A stretch of DNA of 64,000 bases, from positions 128,001-192,000 of the forward strand of contig CAVVLO010000002.1 in assembly GCA_963749155.1 (NCBI GenBank). The letters run 5' to 3'. The translations under genes and the position numbers were made by a program. Shown here piece after piece: positions 13,065-50,559 of this stretch. Positions within the stretch are counted from its first letter, which is position 1; each line of letters starts with the position of its first letter. Under the pieces are notes generated by a model that was not told the origin of the DNA, ran no database searches, and saw nothing but the letters and a program-made list of their open reading frames with translations. Source of the stretch: an uncultured Armatimonadia bacterium (GTDB lineage Bacteria; Armatimonadota; Zipacnadia; CAVVLO01).

Positions 13065-13095
13065 CGAGCCGACCCCGCCGGCAAGGAGCATCAAG

Positions 13096-15790: not shown

Positions 15791-15799
15791 CCATCCTGC

Positions 15800-16819
15800 T
15801 TATTGCTTGGCGGCCCGGCTTTCGAAACGCAGCCTGTAGGTCCCGATCCCGAAAAGGTCGCCGGCCCGCAGGCTGCGACTTGTTACAGGCTGACCGTTCA
15901 CCAGCACAGGTTGTCCTGTGCCCAGGTCGCGCAAGGAGCAGCGCCCACTCTCGATTGTGAGTTCGCAATGGAAAGGCGCGACCGAGGGGTCTTTTATCAA
16001 GGTGATATCCGCCTTGGGCGAACTGCCCAGCCGCGTCACATGCTGGTAGAGGATGAACTGCTTGCCCGCAAGTGGACCAGTAAGCACATGCAACCAGAAG
16101 GTCTTGGCAGCTTGTTCGACCGCGCTGATAGCGACTCCCACCAGCAGGCCCATTACCGAGAAGCCAATCAGGCGCGACATAAGGCCGCCGCCGGTGACGA
16201 TGGCAAGGGGATCAAACAAGGCCCCTCCCAGGAAGCCACCGAGCAGCCCACCTATCAGGCCATTGAGGATGCGCTTGCCCGAAAGCCCAGGCAAGCCTTG
16301 CCCAAGCCCCACAAACAGCCCCACCAGTGCCCAGGCAAGCGCGCGCACGAAGAGCTGTGTAGCAGGATTGCCACCTTGCTCTCCGCCCCCAAGAGAGGTA
16401 TATGCAGCCTGGCCAACTACGCTGCCGAAGGCGCCCCCTGCCCCGCCAACCAGCAAACCGATGAGAGCGCCCTTCAGGGCCTTCTCCCAAACCCCGCTTC
16501 CCACGCCTTCGGTTGCTCCGAGCAGCAAGCCTATAGGCCCGCCAATTCCAAGGCCCAGAATCAGCATCTCCAGCATCGGGTTGAGCGCCGAGGCAGCTTC
16601 ATCCGAGATGAAAGGCTCCACCGCGCACCAGCTGAGGAAGCCCCCAATCAGACCTGCAAGTGCCCCAAGCAGCACTGGCGAGAAAAGCACCTGAGAAGCG
16701 CCAGACTTGCCTTTGCCGGAGCCCTCTCCCCAGCCAGGGCCTCCCCCAGCACCGACCTGATCGAAGAGATCGCCGTCATCCTTGAAATCATCACTTGTCA
16801 GTATAAGGCGGTCGGGCAC
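15800..16819 (-). CDS. Multi-pass Gly-rich membrane protein with C-terminal FHA-like domain
   Basis: About 6-7 Gly-rich TM segments, then WLHVLTGPLAGKQFIL...LGSSPKADI...VLVNGQPV...LRAGDLFGIG. Confidence 0.85.
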   Translation of the reverse strand: MPDRLILTSDDFKDDGDLFDQVGAGGGPGWGEGSGKGKSGASQVLFSPVLLGALAGLIGGFLSWCAVEPFISDEAASALNPMLEMLILGLGIGGPIGLLLGATEGVGSGVWEKALKGALIGLLVGGAGGAFGSVVGQAAYTSLGGGEQGGNPATQLFVRALAWALVGLFVGLGQGLPGLSGKRILNGLIGGLLGGFLGGALFDPLAIVTGGGLMSRLIGFSVMGLLVGVAISAVEQAAKTFWLHVLTGPLAGKQFILYQHVTRLGSSPKADITLIKDPSVAPFHCELTIESGRCSLRDLGTGQPVLVNGQPVTSRSLRAGDLFGIGTYRLRFESRAAKQ

Positions 16820-17520
16820 TAGTCAAGCACACTCCTGGCTATGGCGTAACCCAGCTGCACAATTAGCTCTTTGAAATTCTTGGTAGAGTCGATGTCTGTG
16901 AAGGTACCGCCCGTCTTCTGCGCCAGCATCAGATAACCTTCAAGGGGCTTCGCGACGACATAACAGGCTAGCCCGCGCTCTTTCAATCCGGTCACTGCAT
17001 CCTCGAGTTTCAGCGTAGTGAAGTCTGTGCCGTCGCCAGCGGTGTGATAACCGGCATCACTAATCAGGATCAGCACTCGCTTGGCCTCGGGCCGGAAGGC
17101 CATCCGCGAGGCACTCATCAACGCTTCAAGCTGATTTTCGGGCTCATCCACGCCACCAACAGCTTGCTGGACGGCCAGCCAGGACTTGAACTCTCCAACA
17201 CTGGGGGTGAGGCTCAGGTCCTCGCGATACACCATCCTGACCTCATCACCGAAGGTCACCAGGCCAAATTTACAGTCTACGCCCTGACCGCTTAATAATT
17301 CGGAGAACTGTTCCGACGCAGCCAAAGTGCCATCGATCTCTTCTCTCATACTGCTGGTTGTGTCGAAAACAAAAACCACGTCCACTGGCTCGGGGCTGAA
17401 GGCCCCTCCCCGCCAGAAGAGCGCCAAAGCGATAAGCCCGGCCCAGCAGGCAACGATCAGCAGCCCAAGGGGAAGGTTGGCAAAGAGAGCTCGGTTGAAT
17501 TCTTTCAGAGAAAAACCCAT
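16819..17520 (-). CDS. Membrane-anchored vWA domain protein
   Basis: N-terminal TM, MIDAS-type DVVFVFDTTSSM, GGVDEPE, LILISDA and LAQKTGG. Confidence 0.9.
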   Translation of the reverse strand: MGFSLKEFNRALFANLPLGLLIVACWAGLIALALFWRGGAFSPEPVDVVFVFDTTSSMREEIDGTLAASEQFSELLSGQGVDCKFGLVTFGDEVRMVYREDLSLTPSVGEFKSWLAVQQAVGGVDEPENQLEALMSASRMAFRPEAKRVLILISDAGYHTAGDGTDFTTLKLEDAVTGLKERGLACYVVAKPLEGYLMLAQKTGGTFTDIDSTKNFKELIVQLGYAIARSVLD

Positions 17521-18635
17521 CAGAGCCCCTCCTTACCCTTGCCCTGGCGCACCCAGAAGACCAGCACTGTGTTGCCCACATGCAGCAAGGCGCCATCTCG
17601 CAGCCTGGCCGATGAGACAGGTTGCCCATCAAGCCCCACTTGAAGTCCTCGCTCGGCCTGCACCTGCCAGCCCGTGCCAGTATGCCGCAGGACGAAGTGA
17701 CGCTCTGCCAGGCCAGGTTCTTTCACCAGCCGCACATCCGCCTCAGGCGAGGAGCCCACCCAATTTTCGGGCTTGTGCAGTATGAACTGCTTACCCCGCA
17801 TCGAGCCTTTGGCCACAGCCAGCCAGGCCTGCTTGAAGACCTCGCCAGCAAGCCCCATCAGCAGTCCAACACAGGCGCCAAGAGCTAGCAGTGCAAGCAG
17901 TCTGCCCAGGCTTGAAGAAGCAACCGCGCCTTTGATAGCCTCAAAGGCGATGCCCCCCAGTAGTCCTCCCAGCGCCCCACCCAGCAGCCCATTGCGCAGC
18001 TTGGCTGCCGAGGTATGCAAAGCCGAACTGCCAATTCCCAGGAAGAAGCCCAGCACCGACCAGCCGACAGCTCGCACAAGTAACGCCGCGGCAGGCCCCA
18101 TAAGATGCCCAGTGGATGCGAACTGGTAAGCCCACTCGGCAAGCGCGCCGCCAAGCGCGCCTCCACAAGCGCCTATCAGCCCCCCCATAAAAGCGTGAGC
18201 CAGAGCCGAAGTGATATCTCCGAAAACCAGTTCCTCAAAACTGCTGAGGAAAAGCCCAATCAGAGCGCCCGCCACCAGGCCATATAAAGCCGTCCTGATT
18301 ATCAGGTCTCCTCCGAAGGAACTCGACCAGGCTAGCAGGATTATCTCTCCAAGCAGCCAGGCGCAAACCGCACCAAGTAGCCCGGCAACCAGCAGCAGGG
18401 CCGGCCTGAGAAGAGCGGAAGCACGACGCGGAGCCACCTCGGGTTTGGCCCAGGCCTCTACTGGAGGGCCAACCGAGGCGCCTGCCGGCTCGAAGACTTC
18501 CTCCTCGCTGAAGTCCTCTGCCCCGAGCACCAGCCTTCCAGAGGCCGGGGGAGGCGCAGGTTCCTCCTCGGCAAAGTCCTCGGAAGTCAACTCCAGTCGC
18601 TCTGGCAGCTCTTCCTTGTCGGGCGTATTGTCCAA
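17520..18635 (-). CDS. Multi-pass Gly-rich membrane protein with C-terminal FHA-like domain (paralogue of 15800-16819)
   Basis: Acidic N-tail, TM block, then WLAVAKGSMRGKQFIL...VGSSPEADV...LRDGALLHVG. Confidence 0.85.
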   Translation of the reverse strand: MDNTPDKEELPERLELTSEDFAEEEPAPPPASGRLVLGAEDFSEEEVFEPAGASVGPPVEAWAKPEVAPRRASALLRPALLLVAGLLGAVCAWLLGEIILLAWSSSFGGDLIIRTALYGLVAGALIGLFLSSFEELVFGDITSALAHAFMGGLIGACGGALGGALAEWAYQFASTGHLMGPAAALLVRAVGWSVLGFFLGIGSSALHTSAAKLRNGLLGGALGGLLGGIAFEAIKGAVASSSLGRLLALLALGACVGLLMGLAGEVFKQAWLAVAKGSMRGKQFILHKPENWVGSSPEADVRLVKEPGLAERHFVLRHTGTGWQVQAERGLQVGLDGQPVSSARLRDGALLHVGNTVLVFWVRQGKGKEGL

Positions 18636-18651
18636 ACCTTACTCCCTGGAC

Positions 18652-19443
18652 CTAGACTGTAGTATCGATTATTCCCTCACTGGCGAGTTTCTGGGCCATC
18701 TGGTCGCGCTTCTCATAACCGGCCTCAAGCGCGGCTTTACTGGCACTGCCGAGTCTGGGAAGTTCAGCAAGCGCCGCTTCATCCACCGGCACCAAGGCTT
18801 GTCTGGCAAGCCCATCAGGCCCGGCCAGGCCCATCAGTTGAAGCAGTTCTTTCATCCTGGCCTCGGTGCCTACAGGACCAAACAACCAAAATCCAACCCG
18901 TCGCAGTCCTTCAGGGCCTTGCTGGAAAGCGCCCAGCTTGCCTTGAACCGGGTCGTGTACCACCGCTACCTGGCCAGGGGCGCTGAAAAAATTCTGCTGG
19001 ATGAACTGGTCGAACTCACTGAGGAAAACCCCAAAGCCCGGATGCGTGTGATACCAGCCCATTATCTTGAGGCCAGGCCAGTTGGCGTCCAGTTCGGCGG
19101 AGAAGGCATTCCAGGTGGCATGGGTGAAGGTAATGTTGGTGTGAGTATGGGTTATATGCTGAGCGGGCAAAGCGTGCTCTAGCTCGATGGCCTCGAAGGG
19201 CGCCCCGCCCGGCAGCTGCCAACGCGAGCGCCTGCCGATTAACGCCCCCCCGAGTTCTCTGCTGCGGTCAGTCATACAGTGAGCGCGCATCGCCGATAAA
19301 GCGCTCAATTTGAAGAAAAGGGGTACCACTGCCGAGGCAGGTCGCTCATACTCGAATACCACCATATCGGTGGTCGCGCGCAGAGGCAACTCCTGCTTCG
19401 GAGCCGCCTCACTCAGGCTGATTTGGAAGTCTTTTTCCGCCAT
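18652..19443 (-). CDS. JAB/MPN+ (Mov34) metallo-isopeptidase
   Basis: ELGGALIG and GWYHTHPGFGVFLSEFD form an intact JAMM motif. Confidence 0.92.
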   Translation of the reverse strand: MAEKDFQISLSEAAPKQELPLRATTDMVVFEYERPASAVVPLFFKLSALSAMRAHCMTDRSRELGGALIGRRSRWQLPGGAPFEAIELEHALPAQHITHTHTNITFTHATWNAFSAELDANWPGLKIMGWYHTHPGFGVFLSEFDQFIQQNFFSAPGQVAVVHDPVQGKLGAFQQGPEGLRRVGFWLFGPVGTEARMKELLQLMGLAGPDGLARQALVPVDEAALAELPRLGSASKAALEAGYEKRDQMAQKLASEGIIDTTV

Positions 19444-19457
19444 AGCCTCTAACCGGG

Positions 19458-19997
19458 CTAACCGAGCTGGATGTCGAAATCGTCTCCACTGGGCGCTGGC
19501 GCCTGGGCCTCATCAAAGAAAACAATATCGATGTCTGGTTGCCGCAAGTCCACATTCTGCAACGGGAACCGGTTCCTGTTCAACTCTGACCAGCGCGCAG
19601 CTTCCGCGTTAAGGGGGCTTTTGGGATTATATTCCTGATAGGTCAGCATCTCGGCGACCTGATAAACGATGTCGACCAGAGTCTCACCGGCCGCCCAGTG
19701 GTCGCCGATGCAGATATAACTGCCAAAGTTGGGGTGCCAGACAGGATCCAGCATCACTGACTTGGGCTTCTCCCTTGGATAATCAGTGTGCAGATATATC
19801 TCGGCGCGGTGGACCTCCCTTGTGCGGATGTTGCCCTGCGCATCGCGCCAAAGCCCCTTAACCCGGTACGTAATCCGATACCGGTCAGGAGGATTGGCGG
19901 GACCAATCGGCTCCACCGTGATATAGGGGTGACCCGAGAACTCCTCTTGCACTCGGCTCCAGTCGGCGGCAAGTCGCCTGAGTCTTGCAACACTCAT
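19458..19997 (-). CDS. Ubiquitin-conjugating E2 (UBC fold)
   Basis: RLRRLAADW, DYPREKP, WHPNFGSYICIG (HPN plus catalytic Cys), W, and YNPKSPLNAEAA. Confidence 0.92.
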   Translation of the reverse strand: MSVARLRRLAADWSRVQEEFSGHPYITVEPIGPANPPDRYRITYRVKGLWRDAQGNIRTREVHRAEIYLHTDYPREKPKSVMLDPVWHPNFGSYICIGDHWAAGETLVDIVYQVAEMLTYQEYNPKSPLNAEAARWSELNRNRFPLQNVDLRQPDIDIVFFDEAQAPAPSGDDFDIQLG

Positions 19998-20026
19998 CTA
20001 CTTCCTCCTGCCTGAATAAAAAACTA

Positions 20027-20947
20027 CTAGCGTTTTATCATACCAAGTAAGCCGGCTGCATTGACCAAAACCGCTTGTGCCTGCCCATATTCATACGAAA
20101 ATTGCTGTAAGGCACCAACGTTTGCGGCCATCTCGGCCCGGCGCAGGTGAGTAACCGCACTTTGCACCTGGCCGACAAACTGCAGTCTCATTGGATTATC
20201 ACGCCCTAGCTGCACCAAAGGCTCGAGTAAGGCTTCACCTGCCTGACGCTCTCCTTCGGCCCTTGCCTGATCGCCCAGGCTCCAATGCTGGGTGGCCAGA
20301 TTGAGGTGATTCAAAGCCTCATCAGCAATTGCCACGAACCTCGACTCATCGAGGAAAGCCGAACCAGCCAGTCCAATAATAATAATTACAACAGCTACAG
20401 CCATTACCGCAAGCACGCCAAAAGCTACCTGGGGACTAGCGCGCCGGCTAGTTGGCCTGGGCCAGCCAGGAGCTGGACGCGCCCATTGGGGAACAGGCCG
20501 GTTGCCCGGCGCGGTCGGCATTACCGGTCGCTGCCCCTGATTTTGGCGCACCTGGGGCGAATTCTCGCACCCATAGGTCGTACAACCGCCGTTCTCCTGC
20601 CAGCATTCCTCGTGATGGGGGATACCGCAGGTAGGACAAACGATACTCCTCTCCCCAGCATCTATTTCGCACTGACAATAAGGACAATTTCTACCTTTCG
20701 TTGGACTGGCCTCGGACTTCATCTCCACAGGTTCGCCTGGCTCATCGAAGGGAATGGGCGCTGGCGCCGTTTGGGTTGGCCCCAGAGTTATTAGCACCTC
20801 GTCATCCTGGTCTAGTGAAGGCAAATCTGATACGCGTGGCCGTGCAAGCGAGGTCTCGAATATCTCCCCGCATACCGGACACATATAAGGAGCAGGCCCT
20901 GCGTCTCGAAACTCGCGCCTGCATCTTGGACAGACAAGCTCAGCCAT
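20027..20947 (-). CDS. Zn-ribbon + prokaryotic RING + single TM + extracytoplasmic helical domain (putative E3)
   Basis: N-terminal CPRC..CPVC; CPYC-x11-CPTCGIPHHEECWQENGGCTTYGC; TM VAFGVLAVMAVAVVIIIIGL. Confidence 0.8.
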   Translation of the reverse strand: MAELVCPRCRREFRDAGPAPYMCPVCGEIFETSLARPRVSDLPSLDQDDEVLITLGPTQTAPAPIPFDEPGEPVEMKSEASPTKGRNCPYCQCEIDAGERSIVCPTCGIPHHEECWQENGGCTTYGCENSPQVRQNQGQRPVMPTAPGNRPVPQWARPAPGWPRPTSRRASPQVAFGVLAVMAVAVVIIIIGLAGSAFLDESRFVAIADEALNHLNLATQHWSLGDQARAEGERQAGEALLEPLVQLGRDNPMRLQFVGQVQSAVTHLRRAEMAANVGALQQFSYEYGQAQAVLVNAAGLLGMIKR

Positions 20948-20953
20948 ATATCC

Positions 20954-21640
20954 TCAGTCGGGCACCTGCTCTGATGCTTCGCTTCGGCCGGTCCTCAAAG
21001 GGGCTGGTTGGCCTCTCGCGTTGCATCCGTATGCGGCACAGCCTGCATTTTCGCTCCAGCAGTCGAAATGATGAGGCAGTCCGCACTTGGGGCAAAACAA
21101 CACCACATCGCCTCGCTCGAAAGGGCTCAGGCAGTAGGCACAAATCTGCCCTGCCACTTCGTCGCCAGCTATCACGAGGTCATAACCTGAATGCCTGAAA
21201 CTCGATGCTACTCCTGTATTGCGCGCGGTCTTGATATGAACGAACAACTGCTGTCCCTGGGGCGACACCAGATGCCACAAGACCAGGCCCCACAGTATAG
21301 AGACAAGCGTCATTGCGCCCAGGGCGAATCCCTGCCAGAGACCGTACGAGAGCCCACCCCAGACTGCAAGCCAGAGCGTAAAAATCCCTGACAGTATGCC
21401 GCTGAAAGGGTCTTCGGAATCGATAACCACATCGCGCAGCTCGGTCCAGGTCACTCGCCGACGCCGCGCAAGTATCACTGGCACAGCGAGCGCCACCAGC
21501 ACTCCCGCCAGGAGGAGCGGCCAGGCGAACACCGTTCCAATGAGCGAGGCGCCCAAGGCGATAAATCCGCCAGAAGCCACGAACAGCAACGCGAAGGCAA
21601 GACCTCCGCGCAGCTCCCTGGAGCCAGACTGACTGCGCAC
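20954..21640 (-). CDS. 4-TM protein with C-terminal prokaryotic RING (putative E3)
   Basis: Four hydrophobic segments, then CAYC-x11-CPKCGLPHHFDCWSENAGCAAYGC. Confidence 0.8.
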   Translation of the reverse strand: MRSQSGSRELRGGLAFALLFVASGGFIALGASLIGTVFAWPLLLAGVLVALAVPVILARRRRVTWTELRDVVIDSEDPFSGILSGIFTLWLAVWGGLSYGLWQGFALGAMTLVSILWGLVLWHLVSPQGQQLFVHIKTARNTGVASSFRHSGYDLVIAGDEVAGQICAYCLSPFERGDVVLFCPKCGLPHHFDCWSENAGCAAYGCNARGQPAPLRTGRSEASEQVPD

Positions 21641-21718
21641 TATACTCCACCGGGCACAGGCGGCCTTAGCTGGCCTGACGCGCCCCCTCTATCATATCAA
21701 ACAGGTGGCGTGTAGGGG

Positions 21719-22351
21719 CTACGTTCCGACCAGAGAAGGCAATCCGCAACACAGGCACGTAAAGAGCAGTATCACCAGTGAGTACACCAGCAGGCTGCGA
21801 CCAAAAGCTCTATCCTCAGGATGGCGCTGCCCCATCAGGATTGCGCCGCCGACAATTCCAGCAAGAGGGCCGATCCCGGTAAAAGCCAGCAGCAGAACCA
21901 TTATGTAGAAAATAGTCCTGACTGCCGCCGGGATCGCCGGCTGTGGCCTCGTCCCTCTGGCAGACCCCCTGTCCCACTGGTCGCCCCGCTGGTCGGACGG
22001 ATAGGGATAGGGCGGCGCCTCTGGACTACGCGGAGCAGTAGGTTCGGTGCGCCCAGCCAGAGCGCGCGCCTGAGGGCTTTCGCTGCAGCCATAAGTTGTG
22101 CAACCCTCGTTCTCTCGCCAGCATTCGAGGTGATGCGGGGTAGCGCAAACTGGACAGCTATGAGTCTGATCTGAAGGGCCAATCTCACTTTGGCAATACG
22201 GACAGAGTTTGCCCACTACGCTTGCTGGCGCCTCTGGCTGGCGAGGGGCTGCGGGCTGCCTTGTAAACATCAACTGGCAATGGGGGCAGAAGTGCATCTC
22301 CCCCGGCTCGTCCTCAAAATTCTGGTTGCAGCGTGGGCACTGGACCTGCAA
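21719..22351 (-). CDS. Zn-ribbon + prokaryotic RING + C-terminal TM segments (putative E3)
   Basis: CPRC..CPHC; CPYC-x11-CPVCATPHHLECWRENEGCTTYGC; Pro-rich linker; 2-3 TM helices. Confidence 0.8.
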   Translation of the reverse strand: MQVQCPRCNQNFEDEPGEMHFCPHCQLMFTRQPAAPRQPEAPASVVGKLCPYCQSEIGPSDQTHSCPVCATPHHLECWRENEGCTTYGCSESPQARALAGRTEPTAPRSPEAPPYPYPSDQRGDQWDRGSARGTRPQPAIPAAVRTIFYIMVLLLAFTGIGPLAGIVGGAILMGQRHPEDRAFGRSLLVYSLVILLFTCLCCGLPSLVGT

Positions 22352-22369
22352 GTAGCAGTTCTCCTTACA

Positions 22370-23059
22370 CTAGCTCTTGAGCCATAAGGCAAAGCCGCGC
22401 AGTAACGCCAGTTCTACCACTCCAAGCAAAATCAGCAACCCCAGGGTGCGCAAGGGAGCTTTCCTCAGCATACTGATGCCCGAGGTACGTCTGTCATGCA
22501 GCGCGAGCGCTGCCAGGTTGATTAGCGCCCCTGCAAGGAGCACCCCAAGCAAACTGAGTCCATCGAGCACAATCCAGCCTGGTCTGATAAGCAATACCAA
22601 CAGGCTGACCCCAGCCAGTGTAACCAGACCAAGCCCAAAGGGTTCCCAGACAGATTTGAACATTGGGCGCCGCGGGGGCCTGGCCGGGGCATGGTTAATA
22701 ATAACCAGCAGCAGACTGGCCAGGGCAGGCCCGGCGAAAGCCCCTGTTGCCAAACGGGTCAGGTTGTCAGTTTCTCTGAAGCCCAGACCAGCAGAAATAG
22801 CATCCAGCCCCATCGGTGCAAGTAAAGCCAGCAAGGCAAGCATACGCCAGACATCGCCTGGATAGTCGGCTTTCGCGCGCCCAAGTGCAGCCAGAAGGAG
22901 CACTCCGACAACAAGTCCCAGATGCACTCCCGTGCAACGCGCGCAGAGGGCCAGTTGCACTTCGCCAGGAGCGAAGGAGTGGCTGGGCATCCGATGGCAT
23001 AAACAGGCGCCTAGCTGATCAGCGCTTTGCCGAAACAACTCGACCCACTCGGGAGCCAC
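22370..23059 (-). CDS. DUF2085-type membrane protein
   Basis: LCHRMPSHSF...LCARCTGVHLG...PMGLD...NLTRLATG; multi-TM. Confidence 0.8.
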   Translation of the reverse strand: MAPEWVELFRQSADQLGACLCHRMPSHSFAPGEVQLALCARCTGVHLGLVVGVLLLAALGRAKADYPGDVWRMLALLALLAPMGLDAISAGLGFRETDNLTRLATGAFAGPALASLLLVIINHAPARPPRRPMFKSVWEPFGLGLVTLAGVSLLVLLIRPGWIVLDGLSLLGVLLAGALINLAALALHDRRTSGISMLRKAPLRTLGLLILLGVVELALLRGFALWLKS

Positions 23060-23061
23060 AA

Positions 23062-24074
23062 TTACGTCCCAGCCGGCTGCTCGCCGCTCGCAGGAAGAAT
23101 CAGTAACCGCCCTGGCAACAATCTGTCAGGATTCACAATCCCATTCAGCCTGGCAATTTCCACCCAGCGCTCGCGAGCCCCGAGTTTTTGCTCCGCTATA
23201 CTGCTTAAGGTATCGCCGGCGCTACCTGATAGATTTGGTAAACCGCCTCGGCTTGGGGTTGAACGGCAGTTGGAGCAGGCTCGGTCTGTACGCCCGCAGC
23301 AATCGGTGGAGGGAGCTTGGCCAGTTCAGCCTGGGCCGCATAGAGTTTGATTTTTACATCTGACAATTCAGTTTCCAGACGCTGGACCCTGGTTGTCAGC
23401 GCAAGCAGCAGCACGCAGGCAGCCAGCAAGAGCGCCCAGGGAGCCCAGAGGGCCAACCTCGAGGCCGGTTGCGCAGCCGGCTGAAGGGCCTCGGGCGCCA
23501 GCCCCTCGTGCACCAGGTGATAGCCGGGCAGCAGTTCAGGCCCTGAGTCGGTATTTCCGAAAAAGCCTTGTTCTTTGGCCCGAGGGTCGTAAACCAGCGC
23601 CACCTGAGAGGGCATATTGAAAAAATTGCCCTGGATAAAAAGGTCGTGACCTGACAGGAATATGCCGAATCCAGGATGAGAGTGCACCCAGCCGACGACT
23701 TTCTGGTCAGGATAGTCGGCTTCCAGTACCTCATAAATGTGGTTCCAGGCTTCGTGGGTGAAGGTAAGGCTGGCTCTGCGCGAGTCGGCGCCCTCGGCGG
23801 CGATCATCCCAGTCACATGGATGTGCCAGCGCCCGCGCTTTTCGTGGGAAGTACCCACTAGCACCCCGCCCAGCTCATTGGAGAGATCCTGACTAAGGCA
23901 GGCGACGATCTGATCCCAGACCGGGGCGTCCAGATAGACTTGTACGCGCGCGGACTCAGGCTGTCCAATAGCCTCGCAGTGTTCGGGAGCAGGCAGTTTG
24001 GAGGCAGAGCCTCCCCCGCCCTCTACGGCAGGGGCAAGCTCTAATTCGAAGCCTTCTTCGTTGTTATCAGTCAT
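23062..24074 (-). CDS. JAB/MPN+ peptidase - TM - coiled coil - LysM (frameshift near 23218)
   Basis: ELGGVLVG and GWVHSHPGFGIFLSGHD; TM WALLLAACVLLLAL. After a frame change it reads YQVAP/GDTLSSIAEQKLGARERWVEIARLNGIVNPDRLLPGRLLILP (LysM) to TAA at 23062, abutting the next start at 23059. Confidence 0.85.
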
Positions 24075-24078
24075 CTGA

Positions 24079-25410
24079 TCAGATTCTCGACAGGTTGCGC
24101 TGGATACTGGCAGGCTTGCGTTTATGCTCGAGGCGAGGCTCCATACTGGTCGCCAGCGCCCCAAGGGCGCGAGCGCGATCCGCGGCCAACAAGTAATGCT
24201 TCATCTCGAGTCCTACCCGCGCGGTCACGATGTCGTAGAGGGGCAGGCCAATCTCAGCCAGTGTCATATCGCCGAACTCTTCGGTCCCGCTGTAGGTATG
24301 AGCCAGCTCGGTATCGCGCGCTTCTCCACAGCCCGGGCACCTGGCATCTTTTTCGGACAGTCTGCCAAGCAGTTTGAAAACAGGTTCTCTTGTTCCGCAC
24401 TTTTGGCACAGGAAGGCCGCAACCAGCTCGCGGTCCAGTTCTACCAGCGCCTCAGGTCCCAGATCAGTTCTGGCCCGTTCCAGCAAAGCGTTGAAGGTCA
24501 GGTCAGCGACTCCAGCTTCAAGGGGGATTACTTCCTCAAAGGTAAAATGGGACAGGCAATCTTCTTTCCTTGGATAGTCTACAAGGAAAGAATCGTGAGT
24601 CAGCCCGTTAAAGACCCAGCCCTTGCCGTAAAGCACAGGGAGTTCGGGGCGAGCGTGCAAAAGTTTTAACGCCTCCAGCACTTGTACACCTGCCACGATG
24701 GAAGCACTGGTTGGAGTTGTCGGCACCTTCCCCTCGAGCAACTGGTCCCGGCTGAGCAGAGCGCAGGACTTGCGAGCCGCCAGCAGCTTGGTGTCGAATT
24801 CGTTCATCGTGCATTCATAGCAAGACGAGTCCGGTGGCACAAAAACTCGCGCGATGCCATTCAACACTTCTATGGCGCCATCTATCCAGGGAGTGTTTAC
24901 CTTCCAGCAGGCCTGGTTGATACCGAGTCTGGCCTCCCGGTTGTCAAGCCCGCCGAGGACGACATCCATCTCCAGGAAAACGCCAAGCCCAATATCGGTC
25001 AGCACATTGCCCTGCACCGCGTGAACCGCACAGTCAGGGTTGATTTCCCTGACTGTTTCAGCAGCCACTTCGGCCTTCGGGCGTCCCTCGTCTTCGACCC
25101 GGAATAAAACCGAACGCGTAAGGTTGGAATGCTCTACCGTATCGAGATCAAGCACCAGCAGATTGCCCACGCCAAGCAAAGCGAGATTCTTGAGCAGCTC
25201 GTTTCCAAGCGCGCCGGCGCCTACAATCAGCACCGAAGAAGCTTTGAGCAGAGTTTGATCCCACCAGGGCACGAGGAAGAAACGCGCATAACGGCTGGCT
25301 TCTTCCTCCATACTGACAGTGAGAGGCCCGCCTTCCGCGTCCTTGCCCGAAGGCGCGGGCGCGGGGCCTTCTACAGCAGCCCCGAGCTCAATATCAAAGT
25401 CATCACTCAT
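24079..25410 (-). CDS. ThiF/E1-like ubiquitin-activating enzyme
   Basis: VGAGALG, DLDTVEHSNLTRS, KAEVA, GLDNREAR, CYEC, candidate catalytic Cys in RKSCALL, and an extra CQKC..CPGC Zn ribbon in a C-terminal extension. Confidence 0.93.
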   Translation of the reverse strand: MSDDFDIELGAAVEGPAPAPSGKDAEGGPLTVSMEEEASRYARFFLVPWWDQTLLKASSVLIVGAGALGNELLKNLALLGVGNLLVLDLDTVEHSNLTRSVLFRVEDEGRPKAEVAAETVREINPDCAVHAVQGNVLTDIGLGVFLEMDVVLGGLDNREARLGINQACWKVNTPWIDGAIEVLNGIARVFVPPDSSCYECTMNEFDTKLLAARKSCALLSRDQLLEGKVPTTPTSASIVAGVQVLEALKLLHARPELPVLYGKGWVFNGLTHDSFLVDYPRKEDCLSHFTFEEVIPLEAGVADLTFNALLERARTDLGPEALVELDRELVAAFLCQKCGTREPVFKLLGRLSEKDARCPGCGEARDTELAHTYSGTEEFGDMTLAEIGLPLYDIVTARVGLEMKHYLLAADRARALGALATSMEPRLEHKRKPASIQRNLSRI

Positions 25411-25413
25411 CTG

Positions 25414-25683
25414 CTAACCAGCCGTGACTTCTGGCTGCAACCGCATCACGTCGCCATCCTTCACGCCAGCGTCGGCAAGGCTTTCGTCGTCCGTAAGTTG
25501 CTTGCCCGACTGCTTGTGGACCACTTTGTAAGAGAGCGGTTGGCCGTCAGGGCCGGTCGCCGGCAGTTTCATCATCTGCACAAGCTTGGCAACAATACGA
25601 CGCACCGCTACATCATCCGGCACGGTCGCCTGCTGTTCTTTGTTGCCAGTTACATCAATTATGGTCACGTTGACCTGTCCCAC
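25414..25683 (-). CDS. Ubiquitin-like protein (YukD/EsaB-type beta-grasp) ending in Gly
   Basis: 89 aa; VNVTIID, VPDDVAVRRIVAKLV, GKQLTDDESLADAGVKDGDVMRL, C-terminal PEVTAG; AAGGAGG RBS. Confidence 0.9.
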   Translation of the reverse strand: MGQVNVTIIDVTGNKEQQATVPDDVAVRRIVAKLVQMMKLPATGPDGQPLSYKVVHKQSGKQLTDDESLADAGVKDGDVMRLQPEVTAG

Positions 25684-25695
25684 TGCTGGCCTCCT

Positions 25696-26706
25696 TTAGT
25701 GAAGCTGGATGTCTATATCATCCAAATTTTCTTCTGGTTCTTCGCGTGGCGCCTGAGGTTGCGGGGTTGTCGGCCCGCCGAAATGGATCTCGGGCTCAGG
25801 CCCCACCTCCTGCGGTTGGACTGGCTGCTGGCCTGGCATCGGAGTGTGCGGGCCTTTCTTCATGAACAGCCAGGTGATTACCGTTGCAATCGCCATTATG
25901 ATGAATATGACAAGTACCCAAACCGCCGGATTGGCGGGAGGCTTTTCTTCGGCTGGCACTTCAGGCACATCGGTCTCAGGAGGGCTGGGAGTCTCGCCCG
26001 CCGGAGGCCTGGCGCCTTCGACAAGCTTAAGGCTGAATTGCTTATGACTTGGGACTACCAGGGCTGAGACGCCTTGCTGATTGAGCAGCTTCAACAAGTC
26101 GTTGCTTGGCAGGGCAAAGCCCATACCCTGGGCGCCTTTCAGTACGCGCACAGCTACCCCCAGCACCTCGCCCTGCGAGTTGAGCAGCGGTCCACCACTG
26201 TTGCCAGGATTTAGCGCCGCATCTGTCTGCAGGAATGGCTGGTCCTTTTCTTCCGAAGGCAAGGAGCTGATGATGCCCCGAGTAGCCGAATCGATGGCAA
26301 AAGGCGAACCAATCGCAACGACTGAATCGCCCTGCTTTACGCTTGCCGAATCGGCAAGGGCCAGTGCAGGCGAATTGTCCACCGGGACTTTCAGCAACGC
26401 CACGTCGGCCTTCTCATCCCGGAAGGTTACCTGGGCCTGGGTCTTCTTCTTGCCGTATAACTCGACATCCACCATCGGATGCCCGCCTACGACATGCGCG
26501 CAGGTCACCGCGACGCCATCGGTGTTGATGAAGAAACCAGTGCCAATCCGTTGCTTGCCCTCTTCATCTACCGAGACCTGAAGGACAGCTGGTTTGGCTC
26601 CTTCAATCAGGGCAGGGGTCGGCTTGTCACCAGACTGACAGAAGGCCGGTAAGCCTGAAATCGTTATCCAGCCAGTAAGGAGCATTGCGAGCACTAGCCA
26701 CTTCAT
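25696..26706 (-). CDS. Membrane-anchored trypsin-like (S1C) serine protease without PDZ
   Basis: Signal peptide; TCAHVV, DVALLK, QTDAALNPGNSGGPL; C-terminal TM and a Pro/acidic cytoplasmic tail. Confidence 0.9.
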   Translation of the reverse strand: MKWLVLAMLLTGWITISGLPAFCQSGDKPTPALIEGAKPAVLQVSVDEEGKQRIGTGFFINTDGVAVTCAHVVGGHPMVDVELYGKKKTQAQVTFRDEKADVALLKVPVDNSPALALADSASVKQGDSVVAIGSPFAIDSATRGIISSLPSEEKDQPFLQTDAALNPGNSGGPLLNSQGEVLGVAVRVLKGAQGMGFALPSNDLLKLLNQQGVSALVVPSHKQFSLKLVEGARPPAGETPSPPETDVPEVPAEEKPPANPAVWVLVIFIIMAIATVITWLFMKKGPHTPMPGQQPVQPQEVGPEPEIHFGGPTTPQPQAPREEPEENLDDIDIQLH

Positions 26707-26748
26707 TGACCATCACCTGCTCAAATCGTGGTGCCAACTCACTCGTAA

Positions 26749-26777
26749 AGTATAAACGACCCTGGGCTACCCGACAA
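26749..26777 (-). promoter_or_regulatory. Putative sigma-70 promoter of the Ubl operon
   Basis: Minus strand TTGTCG-N17-TATACT, about 40 nt upstream of the protease ATG. Confidence 0.55.
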
Positions 26778-26812
26778 CAGAAACTCTGTATACGATTTTA
26801 TTACGCGGCCGA

Positions 26813-28948
26813 CTAGAGGCCGCCCTGTATCACCCAGTCGAGAGCTGGCTCGGGCTTGCGTTTGCCTGTTGCGTAGTCATAGATGGCCAGGTTCACCAGC
26901 CTGGCTGCCCTGACAAGCTCTATATAGGGCCTGTCAGCGACATCAACAAATCCGATATTGTAGTTCTCTCCATCGAACCGCCCAGTGAGCGGTTGGTCTG
27001 CATATTCGAACCAATGGACGCCTACCAGATTGGGCAGAGCCGCGGCGCTTGAAACATAATGAGCGTAGGCCTGGGCGCGCTCAGGCTGCGACGCGACTGG
27101 ACGCAGTCCGCCTGCAAGCCCACTGTCGAGTGCCCCAAAATGGAACTCTCCCCCGATAAAAGGTTTACGCGCCAGTTCGTAAAACTGCTGAGCCTGCTCA
27201 GGATTTATCTCATACAGATAGGGGTTGAAGGACACTACATCACAGTATTCTCCTGCGGCTTTGATGGCTTCTTCCGAATAGGCGGCAAAACGCGCGCCCA
27301 GATAAAGATGACCGGGATCGTGACGCTTGAGTACTGCGCGAACGGTACGGAAATACTGCCGGGCAAATTCAAGCAGATAGACGCCGAGGTCAGCCTTGGC
27401 AGCCTCCGGAAGCTCGCGCACCTCGACAGGCGCGTCTTGCCTGAAAGCCTCGAAGCTTGCGAAACTGGTGCCCCAGGCCGCATTGAGGCGCGCCAGGTCC
27501 TGGCCATAAGTGGCAAAGAGCTGTCTCATAAGCGCGCGCCTGGCGAAGGACTTCTCCGGCAAGGCCAGTACCTGAGAGGCCAAATCCAGTTTGCCTGCTT
27601 CGTCCCAGCCTGCCCAAGGTAGTTCATTATCGAAAAAGTAACCGAGTATCCAGGGATCGGCGGCAAGCTCCTCCAGTTGAGACGCAAAGCTGGCCTCAAG
27701 CTGTTTTGCGAACTCGGGATCAAAGGGATCAGGCATACGTTCATTTACTTTGGGTACCCCGCCTGGAGTGCCCAGAGCGACCACATAAGCCGTCCTGCCG
27801 CGAGTTTGGAAGTCTCGGTCCGACCAGTTGCCAATTGTGTTGAAGCCCCAGGCGCGCAGCCGGTCGAGGCTGACCCGGATCCAGCTTTCGCGCCACTCAG
27901 GCCCATATTTACGAATCAGGTTGGCGGTGTAGAGGCTGACCCGATTGGGATCTCCCCAGCCTGCAGTGCGCGCTGGTCCGAAAGTGGCATCCTCCAGGGC
28001 AGGCAGCCACTTGAAAAGAGCCTCTCTGCCCGAGAGGGGGGTTGCGGTGTCGCCAAGCCCCATCACGTCCATCCCGACCGACCAGAACAGCCGCCCCTCG
28101 GGATCGACCAGCCACCAGCGCCCACCATGCTGAGTGGTTCGGAAGCGTCCGGTGGCCTCAAGCTTGGGGCCAGCCGCCCAACCGCCATACTTGTCGAGCC
28201 AGGCCGGGAGCATCACCTGGGCGAGCTGCCGGGCTTCTCCCTCAGCCTGAAGACGCAATTGACCGTCCGACTCGACCTTCACCTCAGCCGACAGAAAGCC
28301 GGGTTGTCCGAACTCATCCAGCAGCCAACTGGGCGCCTGACCTTTTACCAAACCTGCCCTCTCGACCAGCAGCTTGCAGGATTCGGTTGGATTTACCAGG
28401 AAGAGCACCAGCCGCATCATCCGCTGCCAGTAGATGGGTGGCCCGTAAAGCTGGCGCGGGATGAAGCCCTCTCCTGCCATTGGAGGCCAGCGCATCGCCT
28501 CATCCGTCCAGGTTGTAGCAAGGCGGATCCGGCTCAGGCGATGGGGCAGCAAGTAGAATTCGAACGTCTTCCAGCCTTCCTTGCCATCAGAGCCAAGCGA
28601 ATCAAGACGCAGGTGAACAAGCTGAGGCCTCGTAGAGGGATTCCATATTTCGAGTTCAAAAGCTGGGGCCTTCGTCCAGTCAGTCTCCAACCCAAGGGCC
28701 GAAAATTCCAGCGACAATCCGGGATATTCGGCCGGCTGGAAGGTAACTTCGACGACCTGCCCTCCGGCTGGCGCCTCGACAAGTCGGGCGGTCGAACTGG
28801 AAAAACTGGCCGCCTCCAGCAGCTCTTGTCCAGCCAGCGAGAAGGCCAGCGCGCTTGGGGAGAGGGCAAAAAGCAGTAATAAGACGGTCCAGCAAGCCTT
28901 CAAGACAATCCCCCCCAAGCCTGGCTGAAAGGTTAATTCGTGTTCCAC
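26813..28948 (-). CDS. GH50-like (beta-agarase family) glycoside hydrolase, secreted
   Basis: WWLVDPEG, WGFNTIGNWS, DPFDPEF, GYFFDNEL, DVVSFN, GEFHFGALD and DQPLTGRFDGENYNIGFVDV motifs. Confidence 0.85.
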   Translation of the reverse strand: MEHELTFQPGLGGIVLKACWTVLLLLFALSPSALAFSLAGQELLEAASFSSSTARLVEAPAGGQVVEVTFQPAEYPGLSLEFSALGLETDWTKAPAFELEIWNPSTRPQLVHLRLDSLGSDGKEGWKTFEFYLLPHRLSRIRLATTWTDEAMRWPPMAGEGFIPRQLYGPPIYWQRMMRLVLFLVNPTESCKLLVERAGLVKGQAPSWLLDEFGQPGFLSAEVKVESDGQLRLQAEGEARQLAQVMLPAWLDKYGGWAAGPKLEATGRFRTTQHGGRWWLVDPEGRLFWSVGMDVMGLGDTATPLSGREALFKWLPALEDATFGPARTAGWGDPNRVSLYTANLIRKYGPEWRESWIRVSLDRLRAWGFNTIGNWSDRDFQTRGRTAYVVALGTPGGVPKVNERMPDPFDPEFAKQLEASFASQLEELAADPWILGYFFDNELPWAGWDEAGKLDLASQVLALPEKSFARRALMRQLFATYGQDLARLNAAWGTSFASFEAFRQDAPVEVRELPEAAKADLGVYLLEFARQYFRTVRAVLKRHDPGHLYLGARFAAYSEEAIKAAGEYCDVVSFNPYLYEINPEQAQQFYELARKPFIGGEFHFGALDSGLAGGLRPVASQPERAQAYAHYVSSAAALPNLVGVHWFEYADQPLTGRFDGENYNIGFVDVADRPYIELVRAARLVNLAIYDYATGKRKPEPALDWVIQGGL

Positions 28949-28991
28949 ACCTTTTCACCTGCCTGCCCTGGCTCGCTGGTATACTTGCTTC

Positions 28992-29908
28992 GTGCGAAAA
29001 CAAGTCGTGTTTGGCGTTTTACTTACCTTCGTCCTGCTCGTGTGTTTCGGGCTGGGTTATTGGTGGTCGGTGCCCAATCGGGTAGCGGGCCGTTTTCCGG
29101 TGGCCCCTGAGTCCGATCGATTGACAGCCTGATACAGAGCTGGCTCTGGTGCTTGGTCCTGGTGGCTCAAGAGGGGCAGCTCATATAGGGGCGCTCAAAG
29201 CCCTGAGAGAAGCCAAACTCCAGCCGGGCCTCGTTCTCGGGGTAAGCGCCGGCTCTATCGCCGCCTGCGCTTATAGCCTTGGATTGCCCCTGGACGACCT
29301 GAGGCAGTTGTCAATCAACACTTCCACTGCCGCGATCACCTGGCCCTCTTTTTCGATCAGGGCGCCTTTCAGTCAGACTAACCTGCGTCGGTATCTGACC
29401 CGGGTATTTGGTGAGGCTCAACTTGAACAGTTGCCCATCAAATGTGTAATCGTCGCGACTGATCTGATATCCGGCGAACCTTTGTATCTGACGTCTGGTT
29501 CGGTTGTGGACGCCTGCCTGGCCAGTTGCGCCATACCGGGCACTTTCCAGGCCAAGGAGCTTGGAGGGCGTTATTATATCGACGGGGGGATCTCCGATCC
29601 GCTGCCCGGTGCGCAAGGCGCGCTCACTTGGGGCGAAGCAGGTTATCGTCCTTGATCTCGGAGTCCTTGGGCCCGATTTTCCAGCTCGCAAAAGTTTTAT
29701 CCACACCCTCGGCAAAGCTTTGAATGTGTCCATAGAAAAGCTCGCAGCCTGGGAAGCGGCCGAAGCGGACCTGGTAGTGCGTCCAAAGGTCAGCCAGGTC
29801 GACATGTTTGATTATTCACAAGGCCCTTTTGTGTATCAGCAAGGCTACGAGGCCACTCGCAAGGCGCTTGAAGAGGCGTCTCCTGGATTGCACAAGCCCA
29901 GCCGCTAG
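28992..29908 (+). CDS. Patatin-like phospholipase with N-terminal anchor (frameshifts near 29125 and 29610)
   Basis: MRKQVVFGVLLTFVLLVCFGLGYW from GTG 28992; LALVLGPGGSRGAAHIG, GVSAG and DGGISDPLP; the C-terminus continues in another frame (ARSLGAKQVIVLD..ADLVVRP). Confidence 0.8.
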
Positions 29909-30004
29909 TTGGCCTTCTGCAGCTTTCTTTCCACGTTCTGTGGGCAGGTTATGCTTCCTTCCTGCCGAAGAGATGAACCCAACTCCGCGGTCAGGAGGTT
30001 CACA

Positions 30005-33000
30005 ATGCTTCGCCTGAGAGCCTGGACAGTGTGTTTGGTAATAGCTCTGTTTACCGTGAGACTGCCGGCGTCGGCTGATTCTATTTGTCTGGTTCTCGAC
30101 ACCTTGCCCTCGGGCCCTGCTGCCTTTGGGCTTGCCGAACTCGAGACCGCCTGTAAGCAGTTCGAGCTTGAAGTGATGCTGCAGCCGCGCCCCGAGCCTG
30201 AGACCCCTTCGGTCGTATTGGGCATCCAGGGCAAGTCGACCCTGGCCCAGCAACTGGCTGAAGAGGCTGACCTTGAGCCTGTTACGGAAGCTGAAGGTTA
30301 TCTGCTGGCTGCCGTCCGGCCAGATTTGACCGTGTGTCTGGGCGCTGACGCGGTTGGCTTAATGTATGGCGCGCTTGAACTAGTCGACCGACTTGGTCTG
30401 GAGGGGCTGGCTGGCCTGCAACCTGCAGAGCCTGTCCGCGCGCAGCCAAAAGTAAAACTGCGCGGAGTAAACGAGTTTCTGAATGTGCCCCGCTCGGAGG
30501 GCGAAGACTGGTACTTCCTGCACGAAGATTTCTGGACAGGCCTGCTGGACCTGATGGCAAGGAGTCGGCTTAACTGGCTGGACCTGCATGGGATGTATGA
30601 CATTGATACGACCTGGTTTCCCAACATCTACCCCTACTTTATCAAGTCAGATACCTTCCCGGACGCGGGCCTGCCGCCCTCTCAGATGGCTCTCAACCTG
30701 GCGATGCTCAAGCGTATCCTCGAGCTTGCTCACGATAGAGGCATAAAGGTAGGCCTGATGAGCTATCAGACTTCCTGGGATGGCCCTTTCCTGCCCAAAG
30801 CACCCTATGAAGCCACCGAAGAGAACCTGGCTCTCTATACCAAAGAGTGTGTCCGCAATCTGTTGAAAGTGCTCCCGGAACTCGATTTCATTGGTTTCCG
30901 GATTGGCGAGTCCGGCAGGTCAGAGGATTTCTTCCAGAGCAGCTATTTACCTGGCCTGGATGAAAGCGGACTTGATATCCCCCTCTATACTCGCACCTGG
31001 GGGGCGCGCAAGGAGAAGATCCTCGAACTTGGAGATCGCTATCCCGGGCGCTTCTACATCGAGATAAAATACAATGGCGAGCAATACGGCCTGCCTTACA
31101 TCGTGTCAGGGGGCAGGATGGCCGGCTGGCGTGATTATTCTTATCAGAACTACTTCTCCTGGCCGACCGATTACAAGGTGCTGTGGCAACTTCGTTACAA
31201 TGGCACCCACCGCCTTTATCGCTGGGGCAACCTGGGTGACACCCGTCGCACCGCGCGCACGATTGACTTTTGCGGGGCTGAGGGAGTCTGCCTCGAGCCC
31301 TCGATGGCTTATTATCCCAAGAATGACTATATGCATCTGCCAGGCTCTTCTCATACCTATGGCTGGGGCTGGCAGCGCGACTGGGCCTGGTACGAGCTGT
31401 GGGGTCGCCTTATGTATGACCCAGACACTCCGGACGAGGTCTTCCTGCAGCACTTCGAGCAGCGATTTGGCCTGGAACAAGGCAGGTATGCGCTTACAGG
31501 ACTTGATTCGGCCAGCCACATAATCCCCTGGATTTATCGTTACCATTGCCTGGGGCCTGACCACCGCAGTATGGCGCCTGAATACGAGATGGGCGGAGAT
31601 CTGGCAGGATTCGCCGAACTTTCTCCGCTTGATACTTTTGTGATGAAATCGCCTTCAGAGAGCGCCCTGTGCGATCTTGAGGGTACCTGTGATGCCCGAC
31701 TTGGGGCTGACCAGTTCGCAACCAGGTTGCTACTAATCGCATCTCGCACAGAGCAACTTGCAGCTAATCTGGACTCGGTGAAAGGTGCAAATCCAGAGCT
31801 AGATTGCCTCTCGCTGGACTTCAGAGCGCAGGCAGAGCTCGCTCGTTATTACGCTTACAAGAAACGCGCTGCCTATCATTTTGCGCTCTATCTGGAGACT
31901 GAAGATCTGGCATCGGCGTCTGCGGCGCGTTATTGGCTGGGACTTTCACATCAGGCCTGGGCTCGCATGGCCGCGCTTAATGCCGGTCATTATGCGCCCC
32001 TGGTAGATCAACTTCGGATGCATACCCCTGCCTTTACCTGGCAGAAAGAAGGCGAGTTGCTCGCGGGTGATTCAGCCTTGCTTGATGAAGCAGTTTCAGA
32101 CTTTATGGCTAACCTGCCCGCAGCGGAGTTGGAGCCAGAGTTCAGGTCCACCACCCTGGCTACAGCACTGCCCGCTACTCTGCCTTGCAGTTTCTCACTG
32201 ACAATTGGTACCCAGGGCGAGGTCAGTGAGACTACACTCAATTATCAGCTTCGCCCGGCAGGAGAAGAGCCTGCCACCTGGGGCACTCGCCGGATGAGGT
32301 CGCTCGATGAGTTCCAGAACAGGGCCTTCTCCGTGGACTTCTCTATGCCCGAACTGACTGGAGAACTGGCCTGGTATTTCACCTGTACTGTCGCTGGCAG
32401 GCAGCTACGCTATCCGGCAGAAGGCGAATTCAAGCGTCCTGTCACCCAGGATATGACGCCCCCAGTCATCACTCTTGATCGGACCAGTCGTCAGTCCACC
32501 AGTGAAGGCGGCAAGCTTGTGCGCCTTGTGGTGAAAGTTGATGACGCCTCAAAGCTGGCCGAACTAGTGCTGGCCTGGAAGCCCCTGCCTTCGGAAACAG
32601 CCTGGCATTATGCGCCTCTTGCCCAGCGAGATGGCGCCTGGGTGGGCGAGTTCCCGCTTACCTCCGAAGGCGCCCAGTGGGCCTTGCGCGCAACCGATGA
32701 GTGGGGCAACGCCTGTATGTGGCCGGATTTCGAGAAGGAGACTCCCTATATCATCGAAGAACCCTGGGCAGCGCCAGCGCCTTCGCCTGCGGTGCCTCCA
32801 ATTGCCCTCGACCGGTTGCTTCTGCCCGAGGCCAGCGGCAAGCTGAAGAAGGTAGCCCTGGTGGGAAGAGAGGCTTCCAGCCTGGCCCAGGCAAGCCTCG
32901 AGGTCAAAAAGGCTTTACTTGCCCGGGTAGAGGCTGGGGAGTCTTTGATTATCTTCAATCAGAACTGGCCAGAAGGCCTGACTTTCGACTGGCTGCCTGG

Positions 33001-39140: not shown

Positions 39141-39148
39141 GGACAGAG

Positions 39149-41199: not shown

Positions 41200-41223
41200 G
41201 CTCTCAGTTCACCTGGAGGAATA

Positions 41224-43662: not shown

Positions 43663-43678
43663 CAGGGAGGAGGGTATT

Positions 43679-50558: not shown

Positions 50559-50559
50559 A

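Follow-up and report, generated by a model that had tools for sequence, protein, structure and literature searches.

A predicted membrane-anchored JAB isopeptidase with a LysM domain in a bacterial Ubl-E1-E2-RING operon

Prokaryotic operons that bring together a ubiquitin-like protein (Ubl), E1, E2, RING and JAB components were reportedly described in 2011 by Burroughs, Iyer and Aravind, with Prok-RING_1 (PF14446) as the RING and a YukD-like Ubl. A passage of PMC3417536 summarises operons of this kind, and the relevant sections of PMC10557695, PMC11601596, PMC3417536, PMC1779556 and PMC11354881 treat bacterial operons with RING proteins as rare and uncharacterised. A defence role is predicted for such operons in general in parts of PMC10557695 and PMC3417536, and the literature searched held no experimental report of Ubl conjugation by operons of this RING-containing kind. 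The portions of PMC10557695 and PMC11601596 that deal with Bil, CBASS and Bub describe the first two as directed against phage and lacking E3s, and assign no role to Bub; conjugates of a Ubl are cut by the bacterial JAB BilC (PMC10557695, section on that system). The pairing of a JAB with a LysM domain is named once, in the Fig. 1 legend of PMC6043591, where ‘bacterial lysM-associated JAMM sequences’ are said to be left out of the map. We found no other mention of the pair in the literature searched, the main text of largely open-access papers. Database names already show the fusion, e.g. ‘RPN8/RPN11/LysM repeat protein’. The fusion had therefore been noticed, in that legend of 2018 and in database names, and it is widespread and, in the literature searched, unstudied.

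The window analysed here is a stretch of 64,000 nucleotides from an uncultured Armatimonadia bacterium. Its minus strand carries an operon of 13 genes, from 26706 to 15800, in this order:

25696..26706, minus strand: HtrA/DegS-like trypsin with signal peptide, trypsin domain, transmembrane (TM) segment and a tail ending in an acidic motif (Pfam; no PDZ match)
25414..25683, minus strand: Ubl of 89 aa, YukD-like, ending in Gly (Pfam; nearest solved fold Caldiarchaeum ubiquitin)
24079..25410, minus strand: E1 with ThiF fold, Cys216, zinc ribbons and an N-terminal acidic motif (Pfam)
23062..24074, minus strand: gene for JAB(MPN+), TM, helix/coiled coil, Pro-rich linker and LysM in that order; its intact form has 337 aa, and in this assembly the lack of one base interrupts it (intact relatives P0001, P0121, P0122)
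22370..23059, minus strand: DUF2085 multipass membrane protein (Pfam, TM prediction)
21719-22351, 20954-21640 and 20027-20947, minus strand: three membrane-anchored Prok-RING_1 proteins (Pfam)
19458..19997, minus strand: E2 (UQ_con) with HPN and Cys96 (Pfam)
18652..19443, minus strand: second JAB, soluble, catalytic residues intact (Pfam)
17520-18635, minus strand: multipass TM-FHA-like protein (Pfam, TM prediction)
16819-17520, minus strand: TM-vWA protein (Pfam, TM prediction)
15800-16819, minus strand: multipass TM-FHA protein (Pfam, TM prediction)

The Gly-ending Ubl, the E1, the E2 with its HPN and Cys, Prok-RING_1 and JAB all score above Pfam cut-offs in the window, and TM segments are predicted in 9/13 of the operon proteins. 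The operon is thus of the Prok-RING_1/YukD-like Ubl-E1-E2-RING-JAB type, and it is predicted to conjugate its Ubl to target lysines. Foldseek matches the Ubl best to Caldiarchaeum ubiquitin (E 9.9e-7). The trypsin, Ubl and E1 genes share one reading frame, separated by stops plus gaps of 12 and 3 nt, and in one related locus (L039) Ubl and E1 lie within a single ORF. Like JAB-TM-LysM, the trypsin protein is predicted to connect the two sides of the membrane, but in the opposite orientation. Bil, Bub and type II CBASS are distinguished by an IAD-AAD BilD, a DUF6527 (BubE), or a CD-NTase with an E1-E2 fusion, and by having no RING; the locus has a separate E1 and E2 and three RINGs, PADLOC and NCBIfam gave weak partial matches, and we do not assign it to any of the three. 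A link to the proteasome was also set aside: no Pup ligase was found in the genome, and its one proteasome-fold ORF is probably HslV.

The gene of interest is read as an ORF from 24074 to 23205 that terminates ...YQIYQVAPAIP-stop. An earlier note on this DNA had claimed that a one-base frame change opens a full LysM domain beyond this stop, and the translation bears it out. The second frame encodes the LysM past 23205 and closes with a stop codon (23062-23064) that lies 3 nt ahead of the start codon of the next gene at 23059, just where the note had the domain end. The parts of the gene are:

24036..24062, minus strand: acidic phi-x-phi-x-phi motif, residues 5-13 (found also in the E1, the E2, the trypsin, RING proteins and other JABs)
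23622..23942, minus strand: JAB/JAMM domain with E67, H131, H133, S141 and D144 intact (Pfam PF01398 and PF14464; Foldseek best match 6fnn)
23400..23456, minus strand: single transmembrane helix, residues 207-225, signal-anchor type (hydropathy 2.3; positive-inside bias of the family)
23316..23393, minus strand: residues 228-253, an amphipathic helix on the outer side that probably forms a coiled coil (P0001 model, heptad score)
23216..23217, no strand: one base absent from the assembly (X3 and X7 contigs)
23092..23231, minus strand: LysM domain, its first five residues in the ORF frame and the remainder in the second frame

Pfam LysM (PF01476) fits the second-frame piece with 31.1 bits, well over its cut-off (20.9 bits; E 2.3e-7). 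The corresponding stretch of the intact relative P0001 takes the beta-alpha-alpha-beta LysM fold (E279-283, H290-298, H301-310, E324-328) in an AlphaFold model of mean pLDDT 81, its own pLDDT being about 90-95. The hidden domain is present as well in the intact members of the protein's 90% cluster, three of whose four members are complete JAB-TM-LysM proteins of 337-338 aa; the sole truncated member is the 289 aa copy of this assembly. One of the intact members, P0122, is identical in sequence to the reconstruction of the gene offered with the earlier note.

We compared positions 13000-30500 with the contigs of four public runs (X1, X2, X3, X7). In the X3 and X7 contigs, which stem from two independent studies, an additional base stands between 23216 and 23217. 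Among the pieces listed, none of X1 spans this site and that of X2 ends at 23243, so that two of the four runs show the insertion. Further single-base differences between the assembly and the short-read contigs lie at 13081, 13836-13839, 28909, 29127 and 29605. Those at 13836-13839 (seen in X1, X3 and X7) and 29605 (X2 and X3) coincide with two other genes that appear as two overlapping ORF pieces: 13096-15790 and the patatin-like 29149-29908 are each probably a single gene split through assembly errors. Given the extra base in X3 and X7, the intact cluster members and these nearby differences, the frame break is most likely an assembly error, and the gene would be intact in life. Neither outcome that would have counted against the LysM was seen: the X3 and X7 contigs do not repeat the stop, and most same-class orthologues carry the domain. 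That the deletion is genuine in this strain, leaving a LysM-less allele or a pseudogene, or that a programmed frameshift yields both forms, seems to us very unlikely. A true deletion would agree with the fact that the correcting contigs come from related strains, ~95-97% alike, and not from the same strain, and with the LysM-less TM-JABs of relatives, which suggest that a truncated form could function. Against it, the LysM of the second frame shows no decay and hardly differs from that of intact relatives, the break falls in a short C/G run, and several further single-base differences lie close by. Split matches are also commoner across this genome (6/46, against 24/457 in relatives’ loci), a noisy rate that lends weak support since shadow ORFs produce false positives. 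A programmed ribosomal frameshift was ruled out as relatives have single open frames with no conserved split; none of the full-length relatives’ matches holds an internal stop, which argues against a conserved shift. In public RNA runs, at most 0.05 of the sequence words matched.

The JAB is predicted to be an active-type, Rpn11-like JAMM/MPN+ isopeptidase, for which the operon's Ubl may be the substrate. Pfam places JAB at residues 45-151 of the ORF (E 5e-9), with Prok-JAB also matched, and the E-x(n)-H-x-H-x7-S-x2-D motif is present, its E67, H131, H133, S141 and D144 invariant in 16/16 aligned proteins. HxH-S-D is kept in 115/115 JAB+LysM representatives and the catalytic Glu is invariant in an alignment of 50/50, though a pattern search for the Glu misses 28/115 owing to spacing. 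With the P0001 model, Foldseek finds the closest solved structure in 6fnn, Caldiarchaeum Rpn11 with ubiquitin (E 3e-11), followed by 5u4p and with 6fno among the best, and a profile search likewise places the JAB nearest to Rpn11/CSN5-type MPN folds. The five intact residues and this nearest fold agree with the earlier description of the JAMM segment as close to the Rpn11 type. A tree of 177 JAB domains, built by a quick method on 135 columns, left 66/173 inner branches open and the window JAB unplaced on a long branch; one of its starred clades mixes three LysM and two LysM-less proteins.

The order JAB-TM-helix-LysM, also proposed from the letters alone, emerges alike from Pfam, hydropathy and the P0001 model, which has a disordered N-terminus, the MPN domain, a single continuous helix over residues 207-253, a disordered Pro-rich linker and the LysM fold. 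The same architecture recurs widely. Among the best 150 representatives of a profile search, 115 have a JAB followed by a LysM, a proportion that gives no estimate of frequency because the profile was built from JAB+LysM proteins; this rules out a fusion unique to this genome. LysM was found in five of the best 120 listed matches to the truncated protein. A TM segment lies between JAB and LysM in 110/115, and an N-terminal hydrophobic stretch occurs in 1/115. Lys/Arg residues flanking the TM are more numerous before it in 64/110 of the LysM family and fewer before it in 23/110, kin that are not independent, and in the fusion family described below the corresponding counts are 64 and 10 (n=90). 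At the family level this positive-inside bias points to a type II single-pass topology with the JAB inside and the LysM outside, as had been suggested, whereas the window protein alone gives no topology signal because its flanks hold one Lys/Arg before the TM and two after. Past the TM, the heptad score of the window protein is 0.60 against 0.05 for shuffles, and across the family the heptad pattern exceeds shuffles in 76/110 and reaches at least 0.5 in 77/110. The spacer between TM and LysM ranges from 29 to 130 aa, is Pro-rich and is modelled with low confidence.

Among solved LysMs, 9gtp_P comes nearest in a sequence search (E 1.5e-5); we take it to belong to a contractile injection system. 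The cell-wall LysMs 4uz2 (E 4.9e-5) and 4xcm also match, and so do Kbp (7pvc) and a tail-tube initiator of phage (9g8s), so that some of the nearest LysMs belong to proteins without a description as wall binders; a profile search finds the cell-wall LysM 8i2e (E 1.8e-15), and the best NCBIfam LysM match, PRK11198, is far under its cut-off. Peptidoglycan is a plausible ligand, the default expectation for a LysM. The genome has five Mur ligase matches and one match to PF00275, for which MurA and AroA are alternatives. An Atlas search with residues 200-337 returned only matches below 0.9, and a scan of the genome contigs with P0001 found two distant loci only.

Relatives show that the LysM is an accessory, dispensable part of the system. 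Matching JABs occur in 19/40 genomes of the same class, nearly always in the order trypsin-Ubl-E1-JAB-E2-RING, and the cluster-member names of these relatives’ proteins indicate Armatimonadota. LysM is present in 13 of the 19 orthologues: 11 score above the Pfam cut-off, one (L016) is below it, and one (L037) is diverged and seen by alignment only. The other six TM-JABs lack it, with nothing hidden in the other frames of those six loci, and it is these six that make the LysM dispensable. In one genus (g7), two members carry the domain and two do not.

Across 301 genomes of the phylum, the JAB profile matched in 52 and the Ubl in 40. The JAB is largely all-or-none per family (12/12, 7/7, 2/2 and 16/19 against 0/10, 0/21 and 0/37), and viral contigs and plasmids gave one distant match each. 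Operon GC (0.586) is like that of the genome (0.593). No defence or mobility genes were recognised in the 32 flanking ORFs scanned, which hold metabolic, envelope and signalling genes instead; these are 32 of 41 long ORFs, four others having been scanned separately and five omitted as overlapping opposite-strand ORFs. PADLOC returned weak single-domain matches only. Because of this family-wise distribution, the GC, the flanks and the sparse viral and plasmid matches, we infer a resident cellular system rather than a mobile defence cassette. Twelve kb from the operon, at 38448-45954, lies an envelope cluster of an FtsE-like ABC ATPase, FtsX, an M23 peptidase and a CtpA-like S41 protease, together with a divergent polysaccharide deacetylase, another LysM protein and a zinc-ribbon TPR protein. 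Four KaiC-like ATPases, a histidine kinase and a V4R/HAMP protein occupy 49143-57852.

Related operons with LysM-less TM-JABs are common on metagenome contigs. Among 80 metagenome loci, many on short contigs, LysM was found by profile in four and weakly in one more (L060), and the commonest phyla of Atlas JAB+LysM clusters are Actinomycetota, Ignavibacteriota and Bacillota. In three low-GC loci (L041-L043), the trypsin adjoins the JAB-LysM. In another (L045:2751-4480), a JAB-TM-LysM close to P0007 adjoins an E2 only, amid housekeeping genes, and no E1 or Ubl was found on its 10 kb contig. In many related operons (L024, L028, L031-L035, L121-L128) an additional E2, further diverged than the first, precedes the trypsin gene, and the JABs number up to three (one with a TM, two soluble), with HxH-S-D intact in all. 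TM-JABs in which a large helical outer domain replaces the LysM occur in L124, L129-L132, L057, L068, L069, L074 and L091, and L141:7818-10390, on a contig of the viral collection, is a compact E1-Ubl-E2-JAB cassette.

The Ubl of the window has its Gly directly before the stop, as the earlier note had pointed out, so no processing is needed here. The note's further claim, that neither JAB is needed for maturation, holds in this genome and fails for the family: of 75 loci that hold both genes, 39 encode a mature Ubl and 36 one with a C-terminal extension, and where the JAB carries a LysM the Ubl is mature in 15/19 and extended in 4/19 (counts that include two Gly-ending loci missed by the search pattern).

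In one family (f33), the second JAB-LysM matches turned out to be stand-alone genes in which a Ubl and an acidic linker precede the JAB:

L142:6353-7588, with L143, L146-L149, L151, L152, L155 and L156: Ubl-acidic linker-JAB-TM-LysM (proteins P0330-P0423)

No E1, E2 or RING was found within 4-14 kb around the f33 genes. A search with 12 of the fusion proteins gave 94 clusters, and every named cluster with a taxon is from Armatimonadota. All three domains are found by profile in 87/94, HxH-S-D is kept in 87/91, and the terminal Gly of the Ubl is kept in 61/92 and missing from 31/92. Five fusion-bearing genomes, 92-100% complete, showed no E2 and no Prok-RING_1, with weak partial ThiF-type matches in four; the same E2 search was positive in 5/5 control genomes, and absence from incomplete genomes is no proof (in G245 the fusion itself is split over two contig ends). 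Because these five show no cognate E1, E2 or RING, proteins of this build can be maintained where the conjugation enzymes of the operon are missing. This stand-alone family, which places a Ubl directly ahead of JAB-TM-LysM, is new here. It appears to tie LysM-JABs to Ubl, as substrate or as built-in regulator, and each fusion is a candidate self-cleaving one-component receptor.

Several operon proteins share the acidic motif, at the N-termini of the JAB and E1, at the C-termini of the E2 and trypsin, and in RING linkers. Besides the copy in JAB-TM-LysM, its positions are:

25699-25722, minus strand: trypsin tail
25384-25410, minus strand: E1
19461-19490, minus strand: E2
19410-19440, minus strand: second JAB

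The motif was found in 52/115 non-Ubl proteins of related loci, 0/16 Ubls and 100/2637 long ORFs genome-wide, a contrast that is inflated because the pattern was drawn from these same proteins. It forms the C-terminus of the trypsin in 15/15 aligned sequences and is largely missing from the LysM-less operons of metagenome contigs. A predicted complex of the Ubl with the trypsin tail scored 0.40 (best control 0.02), a mark reached by 116/157 solved complexes and 2/215 mismatches, with only 18 solved complexes and both mismatches at or below 0.60; contacts agree at 91% between runs and the partner has a pLDDT of 54. Docking of the trypsin-tail motif on the Ubl is thus a weakly supported lead. 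Motif-bearing operons tend toward Lys3 in the Ubl, a tendency confounded by clade. The motif also lies at a terminus in three other proteins of the genome (472 aa and 254 aa on the minus strand of C2, 1660 aa on the plus strand of C1), which are possible partners or targets, or chance matches.

We propose that the gene product is a single-pass inner-membrane protein whose cytoplasmic Rpn11-type zinc isopeptidase would strip the operon's Ubl from membrane-proximal targets, these having been tagged by the E1, the E2 and the membrane-anchored RING proteins. The outer helix and Pro-rich linker would bear the LysM, which would tether the enzyme to peptidoglycan at wall-associated sites as an accessory localiser, not obligatory in the system, and the soluble second JAB would deal with cytoplasmic conjugates. 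The role would be one in envelope homeostasis rather than against phage. We regard such a wall-tethered eraser near membrane RING writers as probable, if modestly so. The best matches of both JAB and Ubl to the Caldiarchaeum Rpn11/Ub pair speak for it, as do the Mur ligases, and the Gly kept in most fused paralogues speaks for the proposed substrate. The mixed nearest LysMs, the genomes that hold the fusion but no cognate E1, E2 or RING, the locus with an E2 only, the neutral flanks of the window protein and the defence role predicted in print for such operons weigh against it. The LysM might instead bind a protein or other ligand, for example a component of phage tails or the trypsin domain that the operon would place outside, and the system would then be an envelope-level or anti-phage switch. 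We hold this distinctly improbable: the injection-system, Kbp and tail-tube-initiator matches, the poor PRK11198 score and the adjoining trypsin of the low-GC loci would suit it, yet cell-wall LysMs are nearly as close by sequence and closer by profile. An anti-phage role would accord with Bil and CBASS, the bacterial Ubl systems that have been characterised, both of which act against phage (PMC11601596, in its account of them); the weak PADLOC matches and a distribution that is stable by family speak against it.

PASTA kinases and plant LysM receptor kinases offer the analogy for a third reading, in which the protein is a wall-sensing receptor. By binding peptidoglycan or its fragments, the LysM would alter oligomerisation by way of the coiled coil and TM and so turn the cytoplasmic JAB on or off; the stand-alone proteins would be single-component forms, each freeing its own Ubl in response to a signal. 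Its receptor-like layout and heptad pattern, the retention of catalytic residues and scissile Gly in the fusion family, and the genomes that keep a fusion with no cognate conjugation enzymes all favour it, and Rpn11-type enzymes have a switchable Ins-1 (PMC6043591, in the text on that segment). No observation supports it better than the fusion paralogues, which also weigh most heavily against a pure eraser. A spacer so variable in length, Pro-rich and of low confidence would be poor for rigid signal transfer, however; the LysM comes and goes within one genus, and a third of the fusion family lacks the Gly. We consider this reading unlikely. Slightly more doubtful still is the broader proposal that JAB-TM-LysM proteins are trans-envelope receptors, that the stand-alone fusion cuts off its own Ubl on signal and that the acidic motif docks the Ubl. 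Were it true, the state of the wall outside would set isopeptidase activity inside, with Ubl removal or release as the output, and docking through the motif would bring the writer, the eraser and the protease outside together at the membrane, much as in SUMO-SIM networks. Control of deconjugation by wall state, which the earlier note had raised, is plausible.

Taken with the eraser model, the outer LysM, the HtrA-like outer protease and the membrane RINGs together point to a role in the cell envelope, and the Ubl-JAB-TM-LysM fusion allows the effect of wall binding on activity to be examined in one protein. What matters most in the finding is the tie to the envelope and the family of fused paralogues, rather than this copy.

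The LysM-JAMM sequences of PMC6043591 have the same domain pair, named in a legend that gives no topology, operon context or function. Like the Bil, Bub and type II CBASS systems, in which the JAB cleaves the pre-Ubl and/or conjugates (PMC10557695 and PMC11601596, where they treat these enzymes), the operon pairs a JAB with E1 and E2; unlike them, for they lack RING E3s, it has three RINGs and nine membrane proteins. With the Ub/E1/E2/RING/Rpn11 operon of Caldiarchaeum subterraneum (CsRpn11, 6FNN) it shares structural matches of JAB and Ubl and the same catalytic residues. CsRpn11 is a soluble enzyme that processes a Ub precursor to its mature form (PMC6043591, in its description of the enzyme), whereas the JAB here is predicted to be membrane-anchored with a LysM and the Ubl is already mature; in further contrast to Caldiarchaeum, no Pup ligase and a single proteasome-fold subunit were found in this genome. 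With the Prok-RING_1/YukD-like operons it shares the core of single-Gly Ubl, ThiF-type E1, classical E2, Prok-RING_1 E3s and JAB, and the FHA, vWA and protease partners. Beside these, the operon described here would stand out in having one JAB with a predicted outer LysM and components that share an acidic linear motif.
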